The notes below the pieces were generated by a model, which searched no databases, had not been told where the DNA came from, and saw only the letters and a program-made list of their open reading frames with translations. Source: Candidatus Giovannonibacteria bacterium (lineage in GTDB: Bacteria; Patescibacteriota; Minisyncoccia; UBA11713; 2-01-FULL-45-33). Taken from it: 64,000 bases of DNA. The stretch spans positions 2,156 to 66,155 of the forward strand of contig JACOXN010000005.1 of the NCBI GenBank assembly GCA_016176295.1, given 5' to 3'. Shown here one piece after another: positions 1-52,984 of this stretch (its first letter is position 1; every line of letters begins with the position of its first letter). The translations under genes were made by a program, and so were the position numbers.

Positions 1-2132
1 TGAAAGGCGCTGATGCCATCGCGGGAACGATTCGTTCGGGAGGTAAAACCCGGCGCGCGGCCAAGATGGTAATTTTGAACGCTGACCATCCGGACGTGGA
101 GAGCTTTATCGCGAGCAAGTGGAAAGAAGAAGAAAAAGCGAAATCCTTGATCGAGCTGGGGTATGACGACGCTATCGACGGCGAAGTTTACAGCAATATT
201 TTTTTCCAGAACGCCAATAATTCCGTTCGCGCTACTGATGAGTTCATGCGCGCCGTGGAGAGCGGCAAAGATTGGGATTTGAAAGCGGTAACCACCGGAA
301 AAACCGTAAAGACCGTGAAAGCGAAGGAACTTATGAAAAGCATCGCAGAAGCCGCCTGGCGCTGTGCCGACCCGGGGATGCAATTCGATTCCATCATCAA
401 CAAATGGCACACCTGCCCGGAATCCGGGCGCATCAATGGTTCCAATCCGTGTTCGGAATACATGCATTTGGATAATTCCGCGTGCAATCTGGCATCGCTC
501 AATCTTTTGATGTTTTTAAAACCCACGGGGGAGTTCGATACGGAGTCTTACTACAAAGCCATACGCATTTTTATCATTGCCCAGGATATGGTGGTGGACC
601 ATTCTTCTTATCCCACCGCCAAAATCGAAGAAAACGCGCACGCTTTCCGTGAACTGGGGTTTGGGTACACAAACCTCGGCGCGCTGCTTATGCGCTGGGG
701 TTATCCTTACGATTCCGACGAGGCGCGTGCTAATGCCGGGGCTTTAACTTCCATACTTTCCGGCGCCGCGTACGAAACTTCGGTTGAAATAGCCAAAGCG
801 CTGGGACCATTTTCCGGATATGAAAAGAACCGGGACCCGATGCTGCAGGTGATAAAAATGCACGGAGAAGAGTCGCGCAAAATTAACAGGAATCTGGTGA
901 AGCCGGAATTATGGAATTTGTCGCAAACTGCGTGGCTCAAAGCTTACCAGGACGGGATCATTTACGGAGTGCGCAATTCCCAGGTCACGGTTTTAGCGCC
1001 CACGGGAACCATATCTTTCATGATGGACGCGGATACGACCGGTATCGAGCCGTCATTTTCACTTGTGGCCTACAAAAAAATGGTGGGCGGAGGATTTCTA
1101 AAGATAGTGAACAAGAGTGTGGAAGCGGCGCTTAGGAATTTGGGGTACGCCGAAAGTGAAATTAAGGAAATAGCGGATTATGTTTTGTCGAATGATACCA
1201 TTGAAGGCGCGCCACATCTTAAAGCGGGGGACCTCGCGGTTTTCGATTGCGCCACGGACACGGGTAAAGGTTCGCGCTCGATCCATTATTTGGGGCATAT
1301 CCGTATGATGGCCGCAGCGCAGCCTTTTATTTCCGGAGCCATTTCAAAGACCGTTAACCTTCCGGAATCGGTTACGGAAGAAGATATAATGAACACCTAC
1401 ATGGAGGCTTGGAGGCTCGGTTTAAAAGCTATCGCGGTCTACCGCAACAATTCCAAAGGAGCCCAGCCTTTGAACACGACAAAAGCCAAAGCTTCGAAAA
1501 GCGCGGCGGATCTCAACAAAGAGGGCCTTTACCAAAGAAAAAAACTTCCTTCGGACGTAAAATCTATCCGGCACAAGTTCGCTGTGGCCGGGCACGAGGG
1601 GTATATTCATTGCGGGATTTACGAGGATGGAACTTTGGGAGAGGTGTTCATCAGAATGTCCAAAGAAGGGTCAACCATAGCCGGGCTTTTGGAATCCATC
1701 GGCGTGCTGATGTCCATATCCCTCCAATCGGGAGTACCGGTGGAAACCATCGTGAGGAAATTCGTTCACTGGAGATTTGAGCCATCCGGTTATACGGAAA
1801 ACGGGGATATTTTGATAGCAAAATCGCTTTTGGATTATATCGCGCGCTATCTCGCCATTCAATTTTTATCGCCTGAAGCCAGGATGGAATTCGGCATATA
1901 TATTCCTTCCGATACTGATGCGAAAGAAACTGCGCATGCAAATCCGCCAGCTGGCGGAGCCGATGTGCCCGTGGCAGCTCCCAAGCTTTCGGAGGGACCA
2001 GCCTCTGGCTGGAAAGTTGTGACCGCTTCGTTCCAGGATGCTCCGGCCTGCCGCTGTGGCGCTATCATGATACGCACCGGCTCCTGCTACACCTGTTCCG
2101 CTTGCGGAAACAACATCGGCGGTTGTTCGTAA
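1..2132 (+). CDS. nrdJ: Class II (adenosylcobalamin-dependent) ribonucleotide reductase, N-terminus cut by window edge
   Basis: The frame is open from nt 3 (KGADAIAGTIRSGGKTRRAAKMVILNADHPD). Active-site block NPCSEYMHLDNSACNLASLNL is present. Cys-rich C-terminal tail CRCG...CYTCSACG. The ORF track lists 66..2132. Confidence 0.9.
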   Translation, partial: KGADAIAGTIRSGGKTRRAAKMVILNADHPDVESFIASKWKEEEKAKSLIELGYDDAIDGEVYSNIFFQNANNSVRATDEFMRAVESGKDWDLKAVTTGKTVKTVKAKELMKSIAEAAWRCADPGMQFDSIINKWHTCPESGRINGSNPCSEYMHLDNSACNLASLNLLMFLKPTGEFDTESYYKAIRIFIIAQDMVVDHSSYPTAKIEENAHAFRELGFGYTNLGALLMRWGYPYDSDEARANAGALTSILSGAAYETSVEIAKALGPFSGYEKNRDPMLQVIKMHGEESRKINRNLVKPELWNLSQTAWLKAYQDGIIYGVRNSQVTVLAPTGTISFMMDADTTGIEPSFSLVAYKKMVGGGFLKIVNKSVEAALRNLGYAESEIKEIADYVLSNDTIEGAPHLKAGDLAVFDCATDTGKGSRSIHYLGHIRMMAAAQPFISGAISKTVNLPESVTEEDIMNTYMEAWRLGLKAIAVYRNNSKGAQPLNTTKAKASKSAADLNKEGLYQRKKLPSDVKSIRHKFAVAGHEGYIHCGIYEDGTLGEVFIRMSKEGSTIAGLLESIGVLMSISLQSGVPVETIVRKFVHWRFEPSGYTENGDILIAKSLLDYIARYLAIQFLSPEARMEFGIYIPSDTDAKETAHANPPAGGADVPVAAPKLSEGPASGWKVVTASFQDAPACRCGAIMIRTGSCYTCSACGNNIGGCS

Positions 2133-2387: not shown

Positions 2388-4976
2388 CTAATTCTTTTTG
2401 TTGTTTTTTAGCCACCGACCGAGGTTTTCCCGGTCGCGTTCCAGCCATCGGGCATTTATCCTTATCTTTTCTAGGGCCTGCCTTATGCTGCGCTCGGCTT
2501 CCGGAGCGGGGTTTACTTCAAAGAAAGTTCTTACATCCCGCTCATGCTCAAAAGTGGCAAGGAAGCTCGCGGAAGCCAGAATGACATATCTGATGAGCTT
2601 TCCTTTTTCGTACATCTTTCGGAACGCCTGCCAGTTCTCCTTTACGAAGAGCCAGGTAAGCTCGCCTCCCTCCGGATTTGAGCCGAATACGCTGAGACTC
2701 GTGTAAACGTCCTGCGAGCGGACTTTCCCGGAGATGAGGAATTCCAAAGACTTTTTCAGGAGTTCTTTTTCAGAAAAATCTCCCATCGCGCCCAAAAGCC
2801 GGTTCTGTTCCTCCTGGAGCGATGTCTTGCTGTAGAGCTCGATGAAAGTTTCGTGGTCTTTGTCGTTCCCGTGCGCCGCGATTATTCCGTGGACAGCCCG
2901 GCGGATGTTGGGGTGCAGCGTTTCCGGGTCTTTCAAGTACTCTGCAAATTTTTCTCTCGCGCGTTTTACTGTTGCTTCGTCGCCGCGCGTCCCCAAAGTA
3001 TGGAGCAATGTTCCTCTGAGAAGCTTATGTTGGTGTATTTCACCTTCTTTCTCTTCCCAGCCTAAATTTCGGGCCGTCGGAGCGATAAGCTCGCGGATGA
3101 ATCGATTGAATTCATTGGCGTAGCTCTCGCCGGCGAAAAGTCTTTGCGCCGCGTGGAGCCTGCCAAGCAGAGTGTTCCAGACGTTGTAGTCGGTCTCGTC
3201 CCGAAAGCTTGCGGCTATTTCCAGAAAAAGGTTCGTCGTATAATGGCCGGCTTGGGTTAATGCAAAAACGTCATCCAGTATTTCGATGCGGTTGGCAACA
3301 GACAGTTTCCGTTTTTCAATGGGTGCTTTGAATTTCAACAGGTCTTTGGGTTCATAATGGACCCGGAAAAGTCCGGTGAATTCGGTGTTCAGTTTGAACC
3401 ACTTTTTGCCGAGCGGTCCGGGTAATTCTATTCTGTCTTCCTTTTTTTCCATAAGCACCGACGTAATTTCCTTTTTGCCTTCCATAATGGCGCTTATCGG
3501 AATGCTCCAGAGAGTGCCGTCGGGTTCGTTCGTGGGTTCAAGTAAAAAACGTTCCTGGGAAAGCTTTAAAACTGCGGGTTTGCCTTTTCCTCCGCCGGTT
3601 TTCTTGACGCTGACCAAAGGATATCCAATCTGTTTTACCCAGTTGTCCAGCATATACCGCACCGGTTTCATGGAGGACTCTTCCAGAGCGTTCCACAGGT
3701 CTTCCGGTTCCGCGTTTCCATAGCTATGTTTCTTTAAGTAGGAAGAAACGCCTTGTCGGAACACTTCGAAACCCAGAAAATGCTGGAACATGCGGAGAAC
3801 CGAAGCGCCCTTGTCGTAAGTGATGGCGTCGAACGCTTCGTTGATCTGGTCGGGATGCGTTATTTCCGTGTGAATGGGACGGGAAGAACGGAGAGCATCG
3901 GCGGTAAGCGCGTTCAGCATGTCGCCCGACACAAATTGATCGTCGGGGTTCCATTCCGGATGCAGCTTGGAAGCGGCGATCAGTTCCATGAATGAGGCGA
4001 ACGATTCGTTCTGCCAGAGGCCGTTCCACGTGGCCATCGTGACGAGATCCCCGAACCACATATGCGCGGATTCGTGCGCCACGATTACGAAAACTCTTTC
4101 TTTCGTAGCGGCGGAGGAATTTTTTGGGTCAATCAAAAGCGAAGCTTCGCGGGAGGTGATAGCGCCCCAGTTTTCCATGGCGCCGGCAGCAAAATCGGGA
4201 ATGGCGATGAAGTCGAGCTTCTTTGCCGGGTAGGGAACACCGTAATAATCCGAGAGGTATTCGAGGACTTTTACTGCTTCCTCCAGAGCGAAATGGCCCA
4301 GTTCTTTCTTTCCGGGAGTGGTGTTAACCCCGATGAGAACTCCGTGTTTTGTCGTCTTTTCCACGCGCTCGAATTCTCCTACCTGCAGGTTGAACAAATA
4401 CGCCGACATTGGGGGAGTTTCTTCGAAGCGGATGCTTTTGGCTCCTGCTCTCGAAGATTCCGTCGATTTTACCGGCATGTTTGAGATTGCCGATAAATTT
4501 TCAGGAATGGTTATGTGCAGTTCCATGGGCGCTTTTACGCCAGGTTCGTCCCAGCAGGGGAAGATGCGGCGTGCGTCAATTGCTTCGCATTGGGTTGTTG
4601 CCATACTGCGTTTTTGCCCATCGGGCAGCTCATACTTCGCCTCGTAAAGGCCGCAAAGCTGGTCGTTTATCTTTCCCCGGAAATCCAGGCTTAGATAAAT
4701 ATGCCCTTTTTGCAACTTTACGGGAGAAATTAATTCCAGGGTTTCTTCTTTTTCATCCTGTTTTATATCCAAGGTGAATTGCTCCACATGCAAAGATGCG
4801 CGGTAAACGAGTAGGTCAGCGGCATGCATTTTGACTGAACTTACCGGCTCCAGGATGTCGAGCTCGATCATTTCGTGCCCGGAAAATGTTTTGTTTTCAA
4901 GGTCGGGTTCCAGCGAAATATAGTACTTTACCGGCTTTACGTTCGCCGGCAGCAGATAAGCGGGTCTTTTATTCAT
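2388..4976 (-). CDS. pepN: M1-family aminopeptidase N
   Basis: GAMENWG exopeptidase motif and HESAHMWFGD zinc motif (HExxH). The ORF track gives 2388..5009. The ATG at 4976 (MNKRPAYLL) is preferred because AAGGAG lies about 7 nt upstream. Confidence 0.92.
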   Translation of the reverse strand: MNKRPAYLLPANVKPVKYYISLEPDLENKTFSGHEMIELDILEPVSSVKMHAADLLVYRASLHVEQFTLDIKQDEKEETLELISPVKLQKGHIYLSLDFRGKINDQLCGLYEAKYELPDGQKRSMATTQCEAIDARRIFPCWDEPGVKAPMELHITIPENLSAISNMPVKSTESSRAGAKSIRFEETPPMSAYLFNLQVGEFERVEKTTKHGVLIGVNTTPGKKELGHFALEEAVKVLEYLSDYYGVPYPAKKLDFIAIPDFAAGAMENWGAITSREASLLIDPKNSSAATKERVFVIVAHESAHMWFGDLVTMATWNGLWQNESFASFMELIAASKLHPEWNPDDQFVSGDMLNALTADALRSSRPIHTEITHPDQINEAFDAITYDKGASVLRMFQHFLGFEVFRQGVSSYLKKHSYGNAEPEDLWNALEESSMKPVRYMLDNWVKQIGYPLVSVKKTGGGKGKPAVLKLSQERFLLEPTNEPDGTLWSIPISAIMEGKKEITSVLMEKKEDRIELPGPLGKKWFKLNTEFTGLFRVHYEPKDLLKFKAPIEKRKLSVANRIEILDDVFALTQAGHYTTNLFLEIAASFRDETDYNVWNTLLGRLHAAQRLFAGESYANEFNRFIRELIAPTARNLGWEEKEGEIHQHKLLRGTLLHTLGTRGDEATVKRAREKFAEYLKDPETLHPNIRRAVHGIIAAHGNDKDHETFIELYSKTSLQEEQNRLLGAMGDFSEKELLKKSLEFLISGKVRSQDVYTSLSVFGSNPEGGELTWLFVKENWQAFRKMYEKGKLIRYVILASASFLATFEHERDVRTFFEVNPAPEAERSIRQALEKIRINARWLERDRENLGRWLKNNKKN

Positions 4977-21776: not shown

Positions 21777-22172
21777 ATGGCGATGCGTGATTTTCAAGAA
21801 AAGAAGCGGATAGAGCGCATTATGTCTTCGGGGCCGGTGTTATTTTGCCTCTTAATAATACTGCTGGCGGCCCTTTGGGGAACCGGCAAAATGTGGAGAA
21901 TAAGGCTCGGCATTGGCAATGAAATATCGGGTCTTGAAGCGAAATTAGCAAAGACACACTCGGAACGGATGGAATTCGAAAAAAAGTTCCGCGCTTTAAG
22001 CTCGCCCGAGGGTCTTGAAAAAGAGAGCAGAGAGAGGTTTAATTTCAGAAAGCCGGGAGAGAAGGTTGTGGTGTTCCTGGACGACGAATCGCAGGCTTCC
22101 GCGTCAGGAAAAGCGGGTCCCAATTTTTTTATCAGTTTTTTTAATAAAATTATTAAATATTTCGACGAGTAA
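21777..22172 (+). CDS. FtsB/DivIC-like septum formation initiator
   Basis: N-terminal TM segment and a coiled coil, then the conserved tail LEKESRERFNFRKPGEKVVVF. Confidence 0.65.
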   Translation: MAMRDFQEKKRIERIMSSGPVLFCLLIILLAALWGTGKMWRIRLGIGNEISGLEAKLAKTHSERMEFEKKFRALSSPEGLEKESRERFNFRKPGEKVVVFLDDESQASASGKAGPNFFISFFNKIIKYFDE

Positions 22173-22176
22173 TCCT

Positions 22177-22734
22177 ATGAAAAAAATTCAAAAAATATTA
22201 AAAGGAAAATATCTGGCCGTTGGCGCCGTTGTAGTTATCTTGGTGGCGGTATTTTTTTCCTGGGGTTATCTTCCGGTCATGAAAGTGAACGGGGAAATGG
22301 TGAGCTACCGTACGTTTTCAAAAATTTTGGACGCGATGAATACTTACGATAAAGCTGCGGGGAAGGCTCCGCTTGCGGAGGCGGAAATGAAAAGAAAAGT
22401 TTTTTCGGACCTCGTGGAGCAGAAATTTCTGGATGAAACTATAGCAAAAACCGATCCGGCCATGGAGAAAGAAGCCGAAGCGCTGGTGGAGCAGGCCATC
22501 AAGGATACTCCGGGGCTCAACACTAAGGACGCTTCCCGCTTGCTTTTTTCCCTTTCCGAAAAAGATTTCAAACATCTGGTCCTGCTTCCTCAGGCCAAGA
22601 GAGACGTTGTCATGAAGCGTTTTGAAACCAATCCGGATTTTCCGAACATGTGGAGTGAGCTCTACAAAAACGCACAGGTCTCGGTTTACTATCCGGGATT
22701 TTACTGGGAAGAGGGGGAGATAAAGTCAAAGTAA
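22177..22734 (+). CDS. Membrane-anchored hypothetical protein (SurA/PpiD N-terminal chaperone-like?)
   Basis: Start MKKIQKILKGKYLAVGAVVVILV at 22177 (the track ORF starts at 22015, inside the previous gene). The helical region resembles SurA_N-type domains, but the assignment is weak. Confidence 0.6.
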   Translation: MKKIQKILKGKYLAVGAVVVILVAVFFSWGYLPVMKVNGEMVSYRTFSKILDAMNTYDKAAGKAPLAEAEMKRKVFSDLVEQKFLDETIAKTDPAMEKEAEALVEQAIKDTPGLNTKDASRLLFSLSEKDFKHLVLLPQAKRDVVMKRFETNPDFPNMWSELYKNAQVSVYYPGFYWEEGEIKSK

Positions 22735-22744
22735 TCACGCGCGG

Positions 22745-22778
22745 GCGGGATTAGTTTAGTGGCAGAATGGCTGCTTCC
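22745..22778 (+). pseudogene. Orphan 5' half of tRNA-Gly (acceptor, D-arm, anticodon stem up to the anticodon)
   Basis: Exact 34-nt copy of 23121-23154 (GCGGGATTAGTTTAGTGGCAGAATGGCTGCTTCC). It diverges inside the anticodon. Confidence 0.9.
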
Positions 22779-22857
22779 TCCGCCAAAAGTCGCCTGGGGC
22801 GACATTTAGGCGGACCCGTCAAAATGGCCTTCGGCCTTTTGTCGGGCAAGCAAAAAA

Positions 22858-23130
22858 ATGTTTTACACTTACGTATTATTATGCATTGATAAGCAGCGGT
22901 CGCGAAGTAAATTTTATATTGGTTCAACTGAAGATTTGCGTGAAAGGTTGAGGCAGCATAAGAGTGGAAGTGTGGATACTACAAAAAGTTTTGATGAGGT
23001 CTTGTTAATTTATTTTGAAGCTTGTCTAAATAAAACAGACGCAAGAAAAAGAGAGTTGCAATTAAAAACAAGTTTTGGCAGAGGCTATTTAAAAAAGAGA
23101 TTAGAAGGTTATTTCGATAAGCGGGATTAG
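22858..23130 (+). CDS. Small GIY-YIG nuclease-superfamily protein (YhbQ/UPF0213-like)
   Basis: FYTYVLLC...KFYIGSTEDLRERLRQH...RELQLK provides the GIY, YIG, Arg and Glu motifs. The stop TAG (23128-23130) lies inside the first 10 nt of tRNA-Gly. Confidence 0.85.
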   Translation: MFYTYVLLCIDKQRSRSKFYIGSTEDLRERLRQHKSGSVDTTKSFDEVLLIYFEACLNKTDARKRELQLKTSFGRGYLKKRLEGYFDKRD

Positions 23131-23191
23131 TTTAGTGGCAGAATGGCTGCTTCCCAAGCAGCAGGTACGAGTTCGATTCTCGTATCCCGCA
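23121..23191 (+). tRNA. tRNA-Gly (anticodon CCC)
   Basis: Cloverleaf folded by hand. Acceptor GCGGGAT/ATCCCGC, anticodon stem GCTGC/GCAGC with loop TTCCCAA, T-arm ACGAG-TTCGATT-CTCGT. CCA is not encoded. Confidence 0.9.
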
Positions 23192-23211
23192 CAGAAGCTT
23201 CAAATTTAATT

Positions 23212-23236
23212 AAAAAACGGCTCATATAAATGAGCC
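23212..23236 (-). terminator. Terminator of the minus-strand hypothetical gene
   Basis: GGCTCAT-ATAA-ATGAGCC hairpin followed on the minus strand by TTTTTT. Confidence 0.7.
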
Positions 23237-23237
23237 A

Positions 23238-23768
23238 TTAAGAATCTTCCTCGTCATACTCGCTTTGTTGTTTTAAGATGCTTTCTTGAATGCTGCCGGG
23301 TTTATCAATTGCCCAGTATTTCCAGTGCGGCTTAACCCACCAAGAATGAAATTTTAGATTTATTCTCCCTTTGAAAAAAATTTCCATTAGGTGATGATCT
23401 AAAACTGTTGTTAAGAAGGACATTCTTGGCTCCGGAAGACCGGGGTCATAAGGATCAGTTCCGTGGCTTAGCATCACCAATCTTCCAATGCCGTCATCTG
23501 TCGGCCTAATTCTTTCATACCCAAGTGAAAAACCTTTTTGATAATCTTTCAGGAGAAAGTGAAATACCTCTTTTTCATCAATAATCATGTATAGGCCGGA
23601 TTTGTTTTTTTTGAAGTCAAGTATTCGGCCTTTTAATTTTTCATTTATTTTTACAGTGCCTCCCATTGAACCAACCAATCTAATGTACAGGAAATCTGCG
23701 GAATAACTATCTAGGCACAACCTTAAATTCTTAAAATCCAATTTCTTGGGCATCCAATATTGTTCCAT
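23238..23768 (-). CDS. Hypothetical protein (no recognisable domain)
   Basis: 176-aa ORF with AAGGAG upstream of the ATG and its own terminator. The sequence is visibly AT-rich. Confidence 0.65.
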   Translation of the reverse strand: MEQYWMPKKLDFKNLRLCLDSYSADFLYIRLVGSMGGTVKINEKLKGRILDFKKNKSGLYMIIDEKEVFHFLLKDYQKGFSLGYERIRPTDDGIGRLVMLSHGTDPYDPGLPEPRMSFLTTVLDHHLMEIFFKGRINLKFHSWWVKPHWKYWAIDKPGSIQESILKQQSEYDEEDS

Positions 23769-24048
23769 TGCGGGGGGCTCCTTAGGTTGTTAAACAACTA
23801 AGCTATCCTCACCTTAACAATATCGGTTATTTTTGCAATGTAAAAAGCGGCATTATAAATTAGATTTATAAAAAATTTAGCGCCAAAAATATTAAGGCAG
23901 CGCCTGGTTATCGAGGGGATTGCCCATAAAAAAATAACGGCTCTTAGTCTATAAAAGCGTTTGAAGTGGTATTTTTTTACCTTGTTTTGCAAATATTTAT
24001 TAATCCGATATCCTCAAGTAAGATGAACTTGCTTGAAAAAGGTGATAT

Positions 24049-51931: not shown

Positions 51932-52984
51932 ATGGCAAAACAAAAAGAAGTCAGCCCGAGGCTGACCAGCCCTGGGCTGGAAAAAATGACAAAAGAAAAT
52001 CGTTGGAAAGAAGTCGATGCGGCGGTAAAAGACATTCAGTCGCGTTTCGGCGAAGGTATTCTGATGAAAATGGGTGAGATGCCCAAAGTAGACGTGGATG
52101 TAATACCCACGGGTTCACTGGGTCTTAACATGGCGCTGGGCGTAGGCGGTGTTCCCCGCGGAAGAATAATCGAAATTTACGGTCCTGAATCTTCGGGAAA
52201 AACCACGTTGGCGCTCCACATTGTTTCCGAAGCGCAGAAGAAAGGCGGTATTTGCGCTTTCGTTGACGCGGAGCATGCGCTGGACCCGGAGTACGGCAGG
52301 CGCCTCGGAGTAAAGATCGATGATCTGTTGATCTCGCAGCCCGATACCGGAGAACAGGCATTGGATGTAGTGGAATCACTGGTGCGGTCCGGACGGATAG
52401 ATGTTATCGTTGTGGATTCGGTTGCGGCTCTCACCCCCAAAGCTGAAATAGAGGGCGATATGGGCCAGCAGCACATGGGGCTGCAAGCGCGCCTTATGTC
52501 CCACGCATTGCGGAAACTGACGGCCATAGTCGCCAAATCAAAAACAGTGGTCATATTCATAAACCAGGTGAGGATGCAGATCGGAATAATGTTCGGAAAC
52601 CCCGAGACGACCACAGGAGGAAAAGCGCTTAAATTTTATTCTTCCGTGAGGATAGAGGTGCGCCGCGCGGCACAGATAAAAAAAGGCGAAGAAATAATCG
52701 GGAATCGCGTAAAAGCCAAAGTGGTAAAAAATAAAGTTGCCCCGCCTTTCCGGGCGACAGAGTTCGATATTCTTTACAATCAGGGAATTTCCTACGAAGG
52801 TGAACTTCTGGGGCTGGGAGAAAAGTACGAAGTAATCAAAAAATCAGGCGCCTCATATGCTTTTGGCAGCGTATCACTGGGGAGGGGTTATGACTCCGCG
52901 AGGGCCAAGCTTCAGGAAGACAAAAAATTAGCGCACGAATTGGAAGCTGCCATCAGAGAGGCGGCTAACAAAGCAACGGAGTAA
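51932..52984 (+). CDS. recA: Recombinase RecA
   Basis: [15 protein letters not shown] Walker [10 protein letters not shown] and the L2 region [21 protein letters not shown]. Confidence 0.97.

Follow-up and report, generated by a model that had tools for sequence, protein, structure and literature searches.

A GIY-YIG nuclease gene, a conserved double-hairpin module and a duplicated tRNA-Gly(CCC) 5' half: a probable tRNA-gene cassette of CPR bacteria

In a 64,000-nt stretch of a Candidatus Giovannonibacteria contig (the window), a gene for a 90-aa GIY-YIG nuclease lies between a partial and a complete copy of tRNA-Gly(CCC). We consider it probable (roughly 60%) that this locus is the occupied site of a small selfish tRNA-gene cassette, homing-type and tRNA-restoring, that is widespread in CPR/Patescibacteria. 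Under this reading the cassette would consist of a double-hairpin module (M), a few nucleotides of tRNA, a GIY-YIG gene of about 90 aa, and tRNA sequence fused to the 3' end of the ORF. A resident tRNA gene would be broken at a loop position, in tRNA-Gly between the second and third anticodon bases and otherwise within the D-arm or D-loop and in rare cases the T-loop, with the GIY-YIG protein as the presumed maker of the break, and would be repaired from a cassette-bearing copy, the tRNA halves acting as homology arms. The 5' part of the host gene would stay upstream as a relic interrupted by M, and the tRNA would be rebuilt 3' of the ORF, so that the cell keeps a working tRNA-Gly. The ORF would probably be transcribed from the tRNA's own upstream signals and would terminate on U8-A9-G10 of the tRNA.

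Results

Organization of the tRNA-Gly(CCC) locus

The nuclease gene is bracketed by two exact copies of a 34-nt sequence, GCGGGATTAGTTTAGTGGCAGAATGGCTGCTTCC, spaced 376 nt apart (Table 1). The repeat ends at the second anticodon base of tRNA-Gly(CCC), and its upstream copy spans the 5' strand of the acceptor stem, the D-arm, the 5' strand of the anticodon stem, and the loop through that base. There is no third occurrence in the window; a search with the 24-nt prefix of the repeat, allowing up to three mismatches, returned only these two window sites, with 0 expected in shuffles, and the window holds no other copy of the 5' or 3' parts of this tRNA, a 3' relic included. The relic starts 10 nt past the stop codon of a SurA-like gene, and this is probably the original start of the host tRNA.

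The tRNA sequence does not stop at the hairpins. Six further nucleotides, CAAGCA, directly follow M and match the corresponding stretch of the downstream tRNA. Because CAAGCA resumes after the hairpins, the upstream copy covers tRNA nt 1-40, interrupted by 68 nt behind nt 34, and M has thus been inserted cleanly between the second and third anticodon bases of the relic, without target duplication or loss. The whole inserted unit is accordingly composed of M, 6 nt of tRNA, a spacer, the ORF, and tRNA nt 1-34. Under the insertion reading, the first 34 nt of the downstream tRNA would have been brought by, or copied with, the cassette; the exact identity of the two 34-nt copies could also stem from gene conversion between them instead of recent insertion.

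The ORF runs into the downstream tRNA: its 3'-terminal 10 nt are tRNA nt 1-10, and its stop codon TAG (23128-23130) is tRNA nt 8-10. If RNase P cut at 23121, the mRNA would lose this stop codon. The ORF is the only gene inside the unit. No recombinase gene was found in or beside the unit in the ORF list or with Pfam, and no GIY-YIG paralogue elsewhere in the window. An Rfam search of positions 22000-24000 at E <= 1 returned tRNA only, with no intron or ribozyme match.

Most of this layout had been proposed from the letters of the window beforehand. The repeat ending at the second anticodon base, the complete downstream tRNA-Gly(CCC), the two hairpins, and the 90-aa GIY-YIG ORF with its stop in the first 10 nt of the tRNA stood up to sequence comparison, ARAGORN and Rfam, single-stranded DNA folding, and Pfam, respectively, as did the statement that this is not an intron, with an intact tRNA present and Rfam showing tRNA only. 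What the original prediction overlooked was the resumption at CAAGCA: the upstream copy is not simply nt 1-34. New here, then, are this resumption of the relic tRNA after M and the recognition of the hairpins as a conserved module.

Table 1. Features of the cassette locus in the window.
Feature	Positions	Strand	Evidence or sequence
Relic tRNA-Gly(CCC), nt 1-34	22745..22778	+	34/34 identity to 23121-23154; relic type in 32 anticodon-type loci
Hairpin H1 of module M	22779..22814	.	TCCGCC-A-AAA-G[apical stem-loop]C-A-TTT-A-GGCGGA
Hairpin H2 of module M	22815..22846	.	CCCGTC-A-AAA-T-G[apical]C-T-TTT-GTCGGG
Relic tRNA resumption, nt 35-40, CAAGCA	22847..22852	+	identity to 23155-23160
A-rich spacer AAAAA, 5' of start codon	22853..22857	+	
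GIY-YIG nuclease gene, 90 aa	22858..23130	+	Pfam PF01541, E = 7.6e-14
Functional tRNA-Gly(CCC)	23121..23192	+	ARAGORN; Rfam RF00005, 68.5 bits; identical cassette-free 72-nt tRNA in locus L087
Inserted unit, 376 nt, one of several equivalent registers	22779..23154	+	repeat spacing 376; empty sites; composite loci

The GIY-YIG nuclease

The 90-aa protein matches Pfam PF01541 with 52.2 bits against a cut-off of 22.6 over residues 1-75. Thirty homologues with 61-74% identity all share residues Y5, Y20, R30, H34, E54 and E66, and an alignment to UPF0213 BH0048 retains Y, Y, R, H and E; with its catalytic-type residues invariant, the nuclease looks active. The GC content of the ORF (~33-38%) is foreign to the window (46%).

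An AlphaFold2 model (pLDDT 90.1) predicts the elements E2-11, E16-24, H27-36, H40-43, E47-56, H59-69 and H72-89, which correspond to the beta-beta-alpha-alpha-beta-alpha core fold of the GIY-YIG superfamily. When the model was compared to the PDB with Foldseek, all top matches were GIY-YIG domains, with 1zg2, 7wme (HIGLE) and Slx1 occupying ranks 1-7 and I-TevI ranking under Slx1 and UPF0213. The fold relatives 1zg2, 7wme, 7cq2 and 4xm5 are weak ones, with 22-28% identity over the alignments and TM-scores of 0.47-0.64, and profile matches to solved structures were likewise weak (1zg2, E 0.002; 1ywl, E 0.016; Slx1, E 0.2-0.8). The NCBIfam model "group I intron endonuclease" gave 20.3 bits against a cut-off of 56. 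Judging from sequence and predicted structure, the nuclease resembles the structure-specific enzymes Slx1/UPF0213, not I-TevI.

No DNA-binding domain is recognizable in the 90-aa protein, whose whole length is taken up by the catalytic domain. Furthermore, although M interrupts the relic, the ORF is followed by a complete and identical tRNA gene. Since the presumed target, an intact tRNA gene, has thus been regenerated there, the cassette would lack the self-immunity usual for a homing endonuclease gene, unless targeting depends on something else. We therefore infer, rather than observe, classical sequence-specific homing, since the protein is a bare catalytic domain and its presumed target is present again.

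The double-hairpin module M

In the window M occupies 22779-22846 (68 nt; 55-80 nt among the loci) and is dyad-symmetric. Folded as single-stranded DNA, it reached -25.7 kcal/mol on the + strand (z = -6.8) and -26.4 kcal/mol on the - strand (z = -7.6). H1 contains a conserved A.A mismatch, and its 3' strand bears a 1-nt bulge; the consensus of H2 is the reverse complement of that of H1, with a T.T mismatch and a bulge on its 5' strand. A covariance model (R1) scored 65.8 bits (+) and 66.9 bits (-) on the window copy, and M scores equally on both strands in the window and in relatives. The covariance model detected M in 76/80 homologous CPR loci, and in nearly all cases 10-30 nt separate its end from the start codon. 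When 48 copies were aligned, 97.4% of the cells were paired, 15 of the 21 pairs showed double-sided changes, and compensatory cells numbered 109 versus 21 in shuffles; in a control in which the 3' partners were slid by 1-3 columns, the signal collapsed. M is under structural selection and is the most conserved non-coding part of the element.

The tRNA sequence is contiguous across M in other loci as well, with 2-16 nt of tRNA resuming after it. Of the tRNA-Gly loci, 32 have the break after nt 34 and 18 have it after nt 12, 14 or 17; for tRNA-Val and tRNA-Ile it lies after nt 20-22. Most loci, the window included, have one M only. Some have M also 3' of tRNAs, beside 3' relics; the relics of L028, L066 and L010 carry two Ms, in the D-loop and in the anticodon loop; and in L001, L005, L071, L073 and L067 copies of M are nested in the apical loops of other M hairpins. 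The apical loops of M are often of the GCGNAGC type; as a DNA mini-hairpin, d(GCGAAGC) has unusual stability. Composite loci have an M at each end, the two in direct order, and the two ends of a locus often carry near-identical Ms or Ms with one hairpin in common (L063, L072, L008, L069). Outside cassette neighbourhoods, the covariance model found one solo copy in 364 kb of flanks, adjoining a DivIC-like gene in L007, and in the rest of the 64-kb window a search with filters off gave one weak 30-nt mini-match (51951-51980). Our best guess is that M serves as a cis site of the nuclease and/or as a disruptor that shields the relic from re-cutting and from repeat-mediated deletion.

Recurrence in CPR genomes

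The protein has 232 homologues, and a pattern scan of 185,579 species genomes led to 109 confirmed matching stretches, so few that the distribution is sporadic. We fetched 80 genome loci encoding homologues, of which the ORF end could be scored in 77, and counted as downstream any + strand tRNA whose start lay between 30 nt upstream and 300 nt downstream of the stop codon. Such a tRNA directly follows the ORF in 71/77 loci, the opposite of the missing tRNA association that the original prediction had said would point to a simple local duplication. The stop codon falls inside the tRNA in 54 of the 71, and exactly on tRNA nt 8-10 in 41. The abutting tRNAs are mostly Gly, with Val, Ile, Asn, Thr and others also represented. 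The same design recurs in >70 independent assemblies, each on its own tRNA sequence, and this recurrence on the genome's own tRNA excludes an assembly artefact and chance duplication.

An exact 33-37-nt copy of the locus's own tRNA 5' half is present in 13/32 anticodon-type loci. Identity between relic and functional tRNA is bimodal, either 100% or 65-82%, and the second class consists of well-formed different alleles, which fits spread both within species and between species. Several genomes have two copies at different tRNAs, and in L010, L045, L028 and L066 the functional tRNA is enclosed by nested relics. M placement, in the D-arm or at the anticodon, was also compared to protein similarity in an 86-residue alignment, giving a nearest-neighbour concordance of 30/48 and a 1.5-point identity difference (p ~0.004). 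This weak link is not what protein-encoded site specificity predicts, and since M position follows protein lineage only weakly, we claim no protein-encoded cut site.

A tblastn search against 50,697 phage records returned no match, and a search of IMG/VR with the M-core pattern gave six matches, all of them chance matches that came without hairpins, GIY-YIG genes or tRNAs.

Insertion, empty sites and transfer

Insertion into host tRNAs is precise. In L008, L005 and L004 the outermost 5' and 3' tRNA pieces differ from the tRNA in the middle, and when joined in silico they form tRNA-Gly(CCC) cloverleaves (ARAGORN); here a host tRNA was split by an M-ORF-complete tRNA-M unit. In addition, 11 metagenomic loci (L085-L095) have a tRNA-Gly(CCC) core identical or near-identical to that of the window, and the ORF is present in 0/11; L087 has a 72-nt tRNA identical to that of the window and lacks the cassette. 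In six contigs of this cassette-free set, a DivIC-like gene ends 6 nt before the tRNA. These cassette-free genes are empty sites, and together with the occupied loci they give the presence/absence pattern of a homing endonuclease gene.

The idea that a cassette bringing its own tRNA 5' half entered the anticodon and thereby restored the gene gains from the split host tRNAs and the empty sites, the search for which among tRNA-Gly(CCC) genes was successful, but it describes only the window form: fuller cassettes carry a whole replacement tRNA and a second M, whereas that of the window carries the 5' half only. Likewise, a free-standing homing-type cassette agrees with the tRNA linkage and the empty sites, while the sequence-specific homing that the term implies goes beyond what a protein lacking a DNA-binding domain suggests. 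Partial tRNA copies without a GIY-YIG gene, which had been named as a sign of simple local duplication, do exist in relatives (L083, L091 and L089); these ORF-less relics resemble elements that have decayed more than simple local duplications.

The SurA-like neighbour gene, as a route to a strain-level empty site, led to only three homologues. Two same-organism Logan contigs break off within the upstream repeat and are therefore uninformative on the empty site. In the one syntenic relative, L083/L084 (39% identity), an ORF-less relic accompanies a tRNA encoded on the other strand, and this locus was rejected as a clean empty site.

With regard to transfer, the L078/L079 pair shares a unit that is 91% identical between unrelated flanks, and in L016/L018 the unit is 87.5% identical versus 64-77% for the flanks and is inverted relative to them. 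Other genome pairs (L027/L032, L069/L070 and L031/L054) have collinear flanks, so much of the distribution of the cassette could be vertical.

Discussion

Alternative explanations

It is conceivable, though we would wager against it, that mobility resides primarily in M, which would be a miniature double-hairpin DNA element entering the loops of single-stranded or cruciform stem-loops, with the Slx1-like enzyme acting structure-specifically in trans and the ORF plus tRNA duplication persisting because it rescues cells whose tRNA has been hit. M and M-like hairpins do occur at the D-arm/D-loop, the anticodon loop, the T-loop, and the apical loops of other Ms, and the two-M relics and the solo copy beside the DivIC-like gene point the same way. 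The dyad symmetry and the covarying apical stems argue for intra-strand hairpins on both DNA strands, GCGNAGC-type apical loops are frequent, the nearest structural relatives, Slx1 and HIGLE, are structure-specific nucleases, and M site type is weakly tied to protein lineage, although the alignment behind that weak association is of 86 residues. On the other hand, M is almost absent outside cassette neighbourhoods, with its single solo copy in the flanks and one weak mini-match in the window, and so is unlike an abundant miniature transposable element; moreover, a GIY-YIG nuclease copying a hairpin element corresponds to no known mechanism. Were this tentative idea correct, the GIY-YIG protein would be a structure-specific nuclease cutting the loops of DNA stem-loops, with M as its cognate element, and the pair would represent a new class of bacterial mobile element. 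tRNA genes, being highly transcribed, would extrude stem-loops as cruciforms or single-stranded folds, and the system would choose its targets (D-, anticodon- and T-loops as well as the tips of its own hairpins) by nucleic-acid shape and not by sequence, spreading by break repair while the spare tRNA keeps the host alive. Such a system could underlie the non-intron insertions encoding GIY-YIG proteins that have been reported in CPR rRNA genes (PMC11270868).

A vertically inherited, domesticated operon, in which a GIY-YIG host factor is co-transcribed with tRNA-Gly and the relic plus M form an RNA-level regulatory or processing leader, would account for the ORF-tRNA overlap fixed across distant CPR lineages, the purifying selection on the protein, the collinear flanks in several related genome pairs, and the position of M immediately 5' of the start codon in most loci. 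We find it unlikely in view of the empty sites with near-identical tRNA, the second, different tRNA enclosed by split host tRNA halves, the 91%-identical unit between genomes with unrelated flanks, and the sporadic occurrence among species genomes; M also lies downstream of tRNAs beside 3' relics, and there is no reason for an RNA element to have the same consensus on both strands with mirrored A.A and T.T mismatches. By analogy with Xer/dif and the folded attC sites of integrons, M might instead be a site for a host tyrosine recombinase, with M-ORF-tRNA-M units moving as small circles and the GIY-YIG gene as cargo. Its dyad symmetry, conserved arms, and extrahelical or mismatched bases would suit such a site, as would the direct-order pairs of near-identical or hairpin-sharing Ms that bound composite loci, but the absence of a recombinase gene in or beside the window unit and the single M of most loci make this improbable, and it leaves the several M positions within the tRNA and the invariable GIY-YIG partner unexplained. 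We give hardly any credence to an unconventional tRNA intron or a split tRNA resolved at the RNA level, or to plain local duplication or an assembly artefact. The M position in tRNA-Gly is the 35/36 position at which group I introns are known in Patescibacteria tRNA-Asn and tRNA-Asp, and two same-organism Logan contigs do end inside the upstream repeat; however, Rfam finds tRNA only, M has 68 nt versus 184-894 bp for the tRNA group I introns reported in PMC13011429, and an intact copy always adjoins the M-bearing one. We reject M as a spliceable intron because almost all tRNA copies with an M are truncated and M is symmetric between the strands, and simple duplication or artefact because of the recurrence of the design.

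Comparison with known systems

We found no earlier description of the selfish tRNA-gene cassette in the literature on GIY-YIG proteins, on tRNA-gene insertions and introns, or on CPR/Patescibacteria. The Seg family of T4-like phages (e.g., SegB in the tRNA gene cluster) comprises free-standing GIY-YIG homing endonuclease genes that are thought to spread by break and repair into alleles without them, and the cassette is similar in having a GIY-YIG nuclease gene outside introns, among or next to tRNA genes. In contrast, Seg proteins have ~200+ aa with DNA-binding domains, compared to 90 aa of catalytic domain only and nearer to UPF0213/Slx1; Seg elements are not known to have a double-hairpin module, a duplicated tRNA half or an ORF-tRNA overlap; and they reside in phages, whereas the cassette resides in cellular CPR genomes and gave no phage match. 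With the single-domain or core GIY-YIG enzymes UPF0213 (YhbQ-like) and Slx1/HIGLE the cassette shares its type of protein, but we know of no reported link of these to tRNA genes or hairpin modules, and Slx1 requires Slx4 and has a RING domain.

In the mitochondrial atp6 of Allomyces macrogynus, Paquin and colleagues reportedly described in 1994 a GIY-YIG ORF that carries a replacement piece of the gene it has invaded. The cassette is like such mitochondrial endonuclease ORFs in that an essential gene is entered, the displaced part is supplied as a copy, the gene stays intact, and the original fragment is left beside it as a relic. The mitochondrial ORFs replace the 3' end of a protein-coding gene, whereas the cassette replaces the 5' part of a tRNA or a whole tRNA and marks its breakpoint with a conserved hairpin module; domain of life and genome type also differ. 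Integrase-mediated islands and prophages are said (by Williams, in 2002) to integrate into tRNA genes and restore them, and they share with the cassette the tRNA target, the loop break, the carried tRNA segment that rebuilds the gene, and the direct repeat left behind. They duplicate the 3' part and use a tyrosine integrase, whereas the cassette duplicates the 5' part and, at 376 nt, holds only a GIY-YIG gene.

Two further systems resemble M itself. Group I introns of Patescibacteria tRNAs lie at the unusual position 35/36 in the anticodon loop (PMC13011429) and thus share phylum, gene class and position with M; these are self-splicing ribozymes in the only copy of the gene, whereas M has no Rfam match and sits in truncated relics beside an intact tRNA. 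The double-hairpin elements (DHEs) of chytrid and fission-yeast mitochondria are described as short, GC-rich, potentially mobile elements with two adjacent hairpins that occur between genes as well as within rRNA genes and vary hardly at all from one species to another (PMC10085805). M is likewise short and GC-rich with two adjacent hairpins, a likeness in shape. Unlike the DHEs as described there, M is bacterial, goes together with a GIY-YIG gene and tRNA breakpoints, is strictly dyad-symmetric down to its mirrored mismatches, and is essentially confined to cassette neighbourhoods; the description names no nuclease partner and no tRNA-gene sites for the DHEs.

Implications and variant loci

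If the cassette reading is correct, a selfish nuclease gene would live inside an essential RNA gene without an intron, sparing the host by carrying the displaced tRNA segment or a whole tRNA, taking its stop codon from U8-A9-G10 of the tRNA, and leaving a double hairpin at the breakpoint. tRNA genes would then be a route of horizontal exchange and allele replacement in CPR bacteria, whose genomes are small and poorly understood. The cassette would also account for the tRNA fragments of CPR metagenome-assembled genomes and for the breaks in these assemblies at tRNA-Gly loci; its relic halves and M modules are currently invisible to gene callers. A minimal 90-residue nuclease and a 68-nt candidate DNA partner would make an attractive pair for biochemistry, and tools are possible if the enzyme recognizes DNA shape.

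We would like to note two variants of the layout among the relatives: in L060 the cassette occurs without M, and in L031 and L054 the ORF lies downstream of an intact tRNA and is followed by no tRNA.

A partial copy of tRNA-Gly(CCC) precedes the GIY-YIG ORF

The exact 34-nt duplication of tRNA-Gly(CCC) with its break inside the anticodon, as given in the original prediction, was recovered at the same coordinates; the second anticodon base is the last one repeated. No further copy of the repeat occurs in the 64-kb window, where even its 24-nt prefix with up to 3 mismatches is found at 2 sites only (0 expected), and by simple arithmetic a sequence of 64 kb should contain about 1e-11 exact 34-mer repeats by chance. 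The predicted 90-aa ORF matches the Pfam GIY-YIG family, and its TAG stop, claimed to lie within the first 10 nt of the tRNA, is tRNA nt 8-10. The GC content of the ORF is 33-38%, vs. 46% for the window. DNA folding bore out the two predicted hairpins, which together make up a 68-nt module (M). The description of the upstream copy needs one amendment: nt 1-34 are exact and the hairpins follow, as had been stated, but the tRNA continuation past the hairpins had been overlooked, with CAAGCA resuming the tRNA sequence right after the second hairpin. No 3' tRNA relic (a leftover tRNA piece beside the functional tRNA) is present in the window; the locus holds the left part only.

Two Logan contigs from the same organism, L081 (at 3560-3598) and L082, both stop within the first 34-nt tRNA copy. 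Short-read assemblies break at the repeat, and metagenome-assembled genomes may therefore contain too few cassettes of this kind, or truncated ones.

Features of the window and of homologous loci (window coordinates unless a locus is named; L001-L080, genome loci encoding GIY-YIG homologues; L085-L095, metagenomic tRNA-core loci)
Feature	Location	Strand	Remarks
34-nt repeat, upstream copy	22745-22778
34-nt repeat, downstream copy	23121-23154
First hairpin of M	22779-22814		DNA folding energy of the two hairpins about -26 kcal/mol for each strand
Second hairpin of M	22815-22846		fold z of both hairpins -6.8 and -7.6 on the two strands
tRNA continuation	22847-22852		tRNA nt 35-40
GIY-YIG ORF, 90 aa	22858-23130	+	Pfam GIY-YIG, E 7.6e-14
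tRNA-Gly(CCC)	23121-23192	+	ARAGORN; Rfam tRNA 68.5 bits; opens with second repeat copy
Mini double hairpin	51951-51980		TCAGCC-cga-GGCTGA + CCAGCC-ctg-GGCTGG
Break in tRNA-Gly	after nt 34		32 loci
Break in tRNA-Gly	after nt 12, 14, or 17		D-arm; 18 loci
Break in tRNA-Val, tRNA-Ile	after nt 20-22		5 loci
Composite loci	L008, L005, L004, L007, L010, L063, L067, L072, L077
Third hairpin type	L003 2434-2470; L005 2420-2480; L007 2680-2720; L067 2403-2440; L073 2393-2484
Solo M	L007 774-838		1.4 kb from cassette
Variant without M	L060 2325-2360		relic 5' part fused to ORF start codon
tRNA-Pro, then M, then ORF	L031 2350-2500; L054 2335-2500		no tRNA past ORF
tRNA-Val, one hairpin, ORF	L075 2350-2800		followed by 3'-end relic
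Cassette-free tRNA-Gly(CCC)	L091 ~1081-1146		upstream 38-nt 5'-half relic without M
Cassette-free tRNA-Gly(CCC)	L089 ~1075-1131		downstream 3'-half relic, ..CGGGG before relic

Association of the nuclease gene with tRNA genes

A genome scan confirmed 109 stretches encoding relatives of the nuclease, from which 80 loci were fetched, with the ORF end scorable in 77. The claimed association with tRNA holds beyond the window, as a plus-strand tRNA starts between 30 nt before and 300 nt after the stop codon in 71 of the 77 loci. Of these 71 ORFs, 54 terminate within the tRNA itself, and 41 stop exactly on nt 8-10 (e.g., window 23121-23130), where the near-universal tRNA U8-A9-G10 is read as TAG. 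The homologue C-termini (..RD, ..AGVVQW) are in many cases translated tRNA 5' ends. The GIY-YIG mRNA would then lose its stop codon when RNase P cuts at tRNA nt 1.

Closer homologues are partnered with tRNA-Gly (CCC, TCC, or GCC), and distant homologues and second copies with Val, Ile, Asn, Thr, Ala, Leu, Gln, or Ser tRNAs; in 72 of 73 cases, a protein and its nearest neighbour are linked to tRNAs of one class. Two cassette copies at different tRNAs are found on one contig in L007, L047, L056, and L057 each, and within one assembly at L073 and L077.

The window protein is 100% identical to a protein of a Candidatus Giovannonibacteria assembly. Its 232 homologues at 60-74% identity come nearly all from the Candidate Phyla Radiation (CPR, Patescibacteria), and a library of 50%-identity cluster representatives yielded 530 proteins at E <= 1e-10, almost all of 85-130 aa. 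Residues Y5, Y20, R30, H34, E54, and E66 are invariant across 30 homologues (61-74% identity). The AlphaFold2 model (pLDDT 90) is nearest to UPF0213 BH0048, At-HIGLE, and Slx1. I-TevI and UvrC rank below these. The nuclease thus belongs to the Slx1/UPF0213 branch and consists of the catalytic domain alone, with no recognisable DNA-binding domain.

The double-hairpin module

At almost all loci, the consensus xCCGCC-N-AAAG[stem-loop]C-ATT-N'-n-GGCGGx, then xCCGCC-n-N-AATG[stem-loop]C-TTT-N'-GGCGGx, separates the ORF from the tRNA copy upstream of it. A covariance model of M (R1) detects it in 76 of the 80 loci, where it usually ends 10-30 nt before the start codon; no Rfam family resembles it. 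Among 48 copies, pairing is kept in 97.4% of cells, 15 of 21 pairs have double-sided changes, and compensatory cells number 109 vs. 21 in shuffles, while in slid controls the signal collapses. All four Watson-Crick pairs are seen at N/N', and the sequence of the apical stems is free to vary. The hairpins mirror each other: an A.A mismatch is conserved in the first, with a bulge on the 3' strand, and a T.T mismatch in the second, with a bulge on the 5' strand. The R1 score of the window's M is 65.8 vs. 66.9 bits on the two strands, with strand-equal scores in other loci too. Because M has two-fold symmetry and is under selection to pair within a strand, it probably acts as DNA (hairpins/cruciform, both strands) rather than as RNA. 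The heptamer d(GCGAAGC) is an unusually stable DNA mini-hairpin, and the apical loops of the second hairpin are often GCGAAGC, GCGGAGC, GCGTAGC, or GCGCAGC, with the complement frequent in the first (L003, L023, L027, L028, L032, and others; columns 59-64 of our alignment A2), which would fit DNA-level folding. A third recurrent hairpin type, CCCGCC-ACAAC(T/A)TC(T)GCAGA(T/A)GTTG-GGCGGG, is nested in or appended to M, and M-like units also occur inside apical loops of other M hairpins (L001, L005, L071).

A mini double hairpin just upstream of the probable recA start of the window (ATG 51987) resembles M reduced to its outer stems and scores weakly with R1 (20.8 and 18.8 bits on the two strands, E 0.006 and 0.017); its stem variants recur in the M copies of L024, L028, and L031. 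The solo M of L007 extends into the 3' end of a DivIC-like ORF, and a hairpin resembling a terminator comes after it. Judging from gene order, it may mark a former tRNA site, because tRNA-Gly directly follows the DivIC-like gene in related contigs (L085 type).

The tRNA sequence runs contiguously across M, without duplication or loss, at the break positions listed in the table, so that M is a clean insert in a tRNA copy; in one case, L002, M lies in the T-loop. Past M, 2-16 nt of tRNA continue before the ORF leader. Right-hand modules occur in about 16 loci, and the left part alone in about 60, the window among them. In composite loci, a tRNA 5' part is followed by M, a few nt, the ORF, and a complete tRNA, after which another few nt and a second M lead to a tRNA 3' part; the left and right modules within a locus are often near-identical or have one hairpin in common. 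In L008, L005, and L004, the outer tRNA parts are unlike the middle tRNA, have mutually complementary acceptor strands, and when joined in silico yield tRNA-Gly(CCC) cloverleaves in ARAGORN; such rejoinable halves indicate a host tRNA precisely split by an insert carrying its own tRNA. In L008, the nucleotides past the left M agree with the middle (incoming) tRNA and not with the host half.

Empty sites, relics, and transfer

Cassette-free, near-identical tRNA-Gly(CCC) genes were found in relatives, as one would look for under the original prediction. Metagenomes were scanned with the tRNA core; none of the 11 loci obtained has the ORF, and L087 has the identical 72-nt tRNA with unrelated upstream sequence and no cassette. 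In six metagenomic contigs, a DivIC-like gene ends 6 nt before the tRNA, and two cassette-free loci (L091, L089) retain relics. The only syntenic relative, L083 (LepA-DivIC-SurA-like), has its tRNA-Gly on the strand opposite to the window's, relative to the SurA-like gene, and an ORF-less, hairpin-containing 5' relic similar to the window tRNA.

An M-ORF-tRNA-Asn-terminator unit is 91-93% identical between L078 (56-509) and L079 (2408-2964) within unrelated flanks, in assemblies that bear the deposited labels Elusimicrobia and Clostridia. Past the tRNA, L079 has 67 extra nt, in which one hairpin and 13 nt of a relic tRNA 3' end are found. In two related genomes (L016 and L018, both 2386-2840), the unit from relic 5' part to tRNA end is 87.5% identical, vs. 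64-77% for the flanks, and is inverted relative to these syntenic flanks. Vertical inheritance evidently also occurs, because other genome pairs are collinear. No cassette was found in phage and viral collections.

When the upstream 5' part was compared to the functional tRNA at 32 anticodon-type loci, identity was 100% in 13 (window included), 91-97% in 3, and 65-82% in 16, where the relic is a well-formed but different tRNA-Gly allele. These classes would fit two modes of spread, within a population (same allele) and between lineages (a foreign tRNA brought in); alternatively, the 100% class could reflect gene conversion between copies.

Proposed mechanism and related systems

The comparisons show a compact unit, made up of M, the ORF, and a tRNA segment, that sits in the loops of tRNA genes. 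It is flanked by pieces of the host tRNA on one side or both, an intact tRNA is always left, and the unit is present or absent among relatives and sometimes common to unrelated contexts. It is most likely a homing-type selfish cassette. A break in a resident tRNA gene would be repaired from a cassette-bearing copy: the left end would pair with the relic 5' part (in conspecifics, this part and the upstream flank form one uninterrupted stretch), synthesis would proceed through M, the ORF, and then the cassette tRNA sequence, and the right end would pair with the tRNA 3' half, giving the structure of the window. Drive could be asymmetric despite the regenerated target, in that an occupied allele, when cut, would keep its ORF through repair, whereas an empty one could gain the ORF by copying. 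M would protect the relic copy from re-cutting and from collapse with the downstream repeat, and is a candidate binding site for the nuclease.

The main rival to simple homing, or a refinement of it, is an enzyme that recognises the loops of hairpins, with M as the mobile hairpin element cognate to it. It stands foremost because the nuclease appears to lack a DNA-binding domain, its relatives are structure-specific enzymes, and the position of M is tied weakly to protein lineage. There is a realistic chance that hairpin-loop targeting, if true, represents a new mechanism.

In its logic, the homing-type cassette has parallels in T4-like phages, with their free-standing GIY-YIG homing genes, in mitochondria, where endonuclease ORFs carry a substitute for a gene segment, and in integrative elements that restore tRNA genes. 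Mitochondrial double-hairpin elements (PMC10085805) have a shape like that of M, and the group I introns that interrupt Patescibacteria tRNAs at 35/36 (PMC13011429) have its position but differ in nature. We found no account of a tRNA/GIY-YIG/double-hairpin cassette in the literature, with subscription papers covered in part and an earlier account thus possible. Non-intron insertions with GIY-YIG genes are described in CPR rRNA genes (PMC11270868) and may be related to the tRNA cassette.
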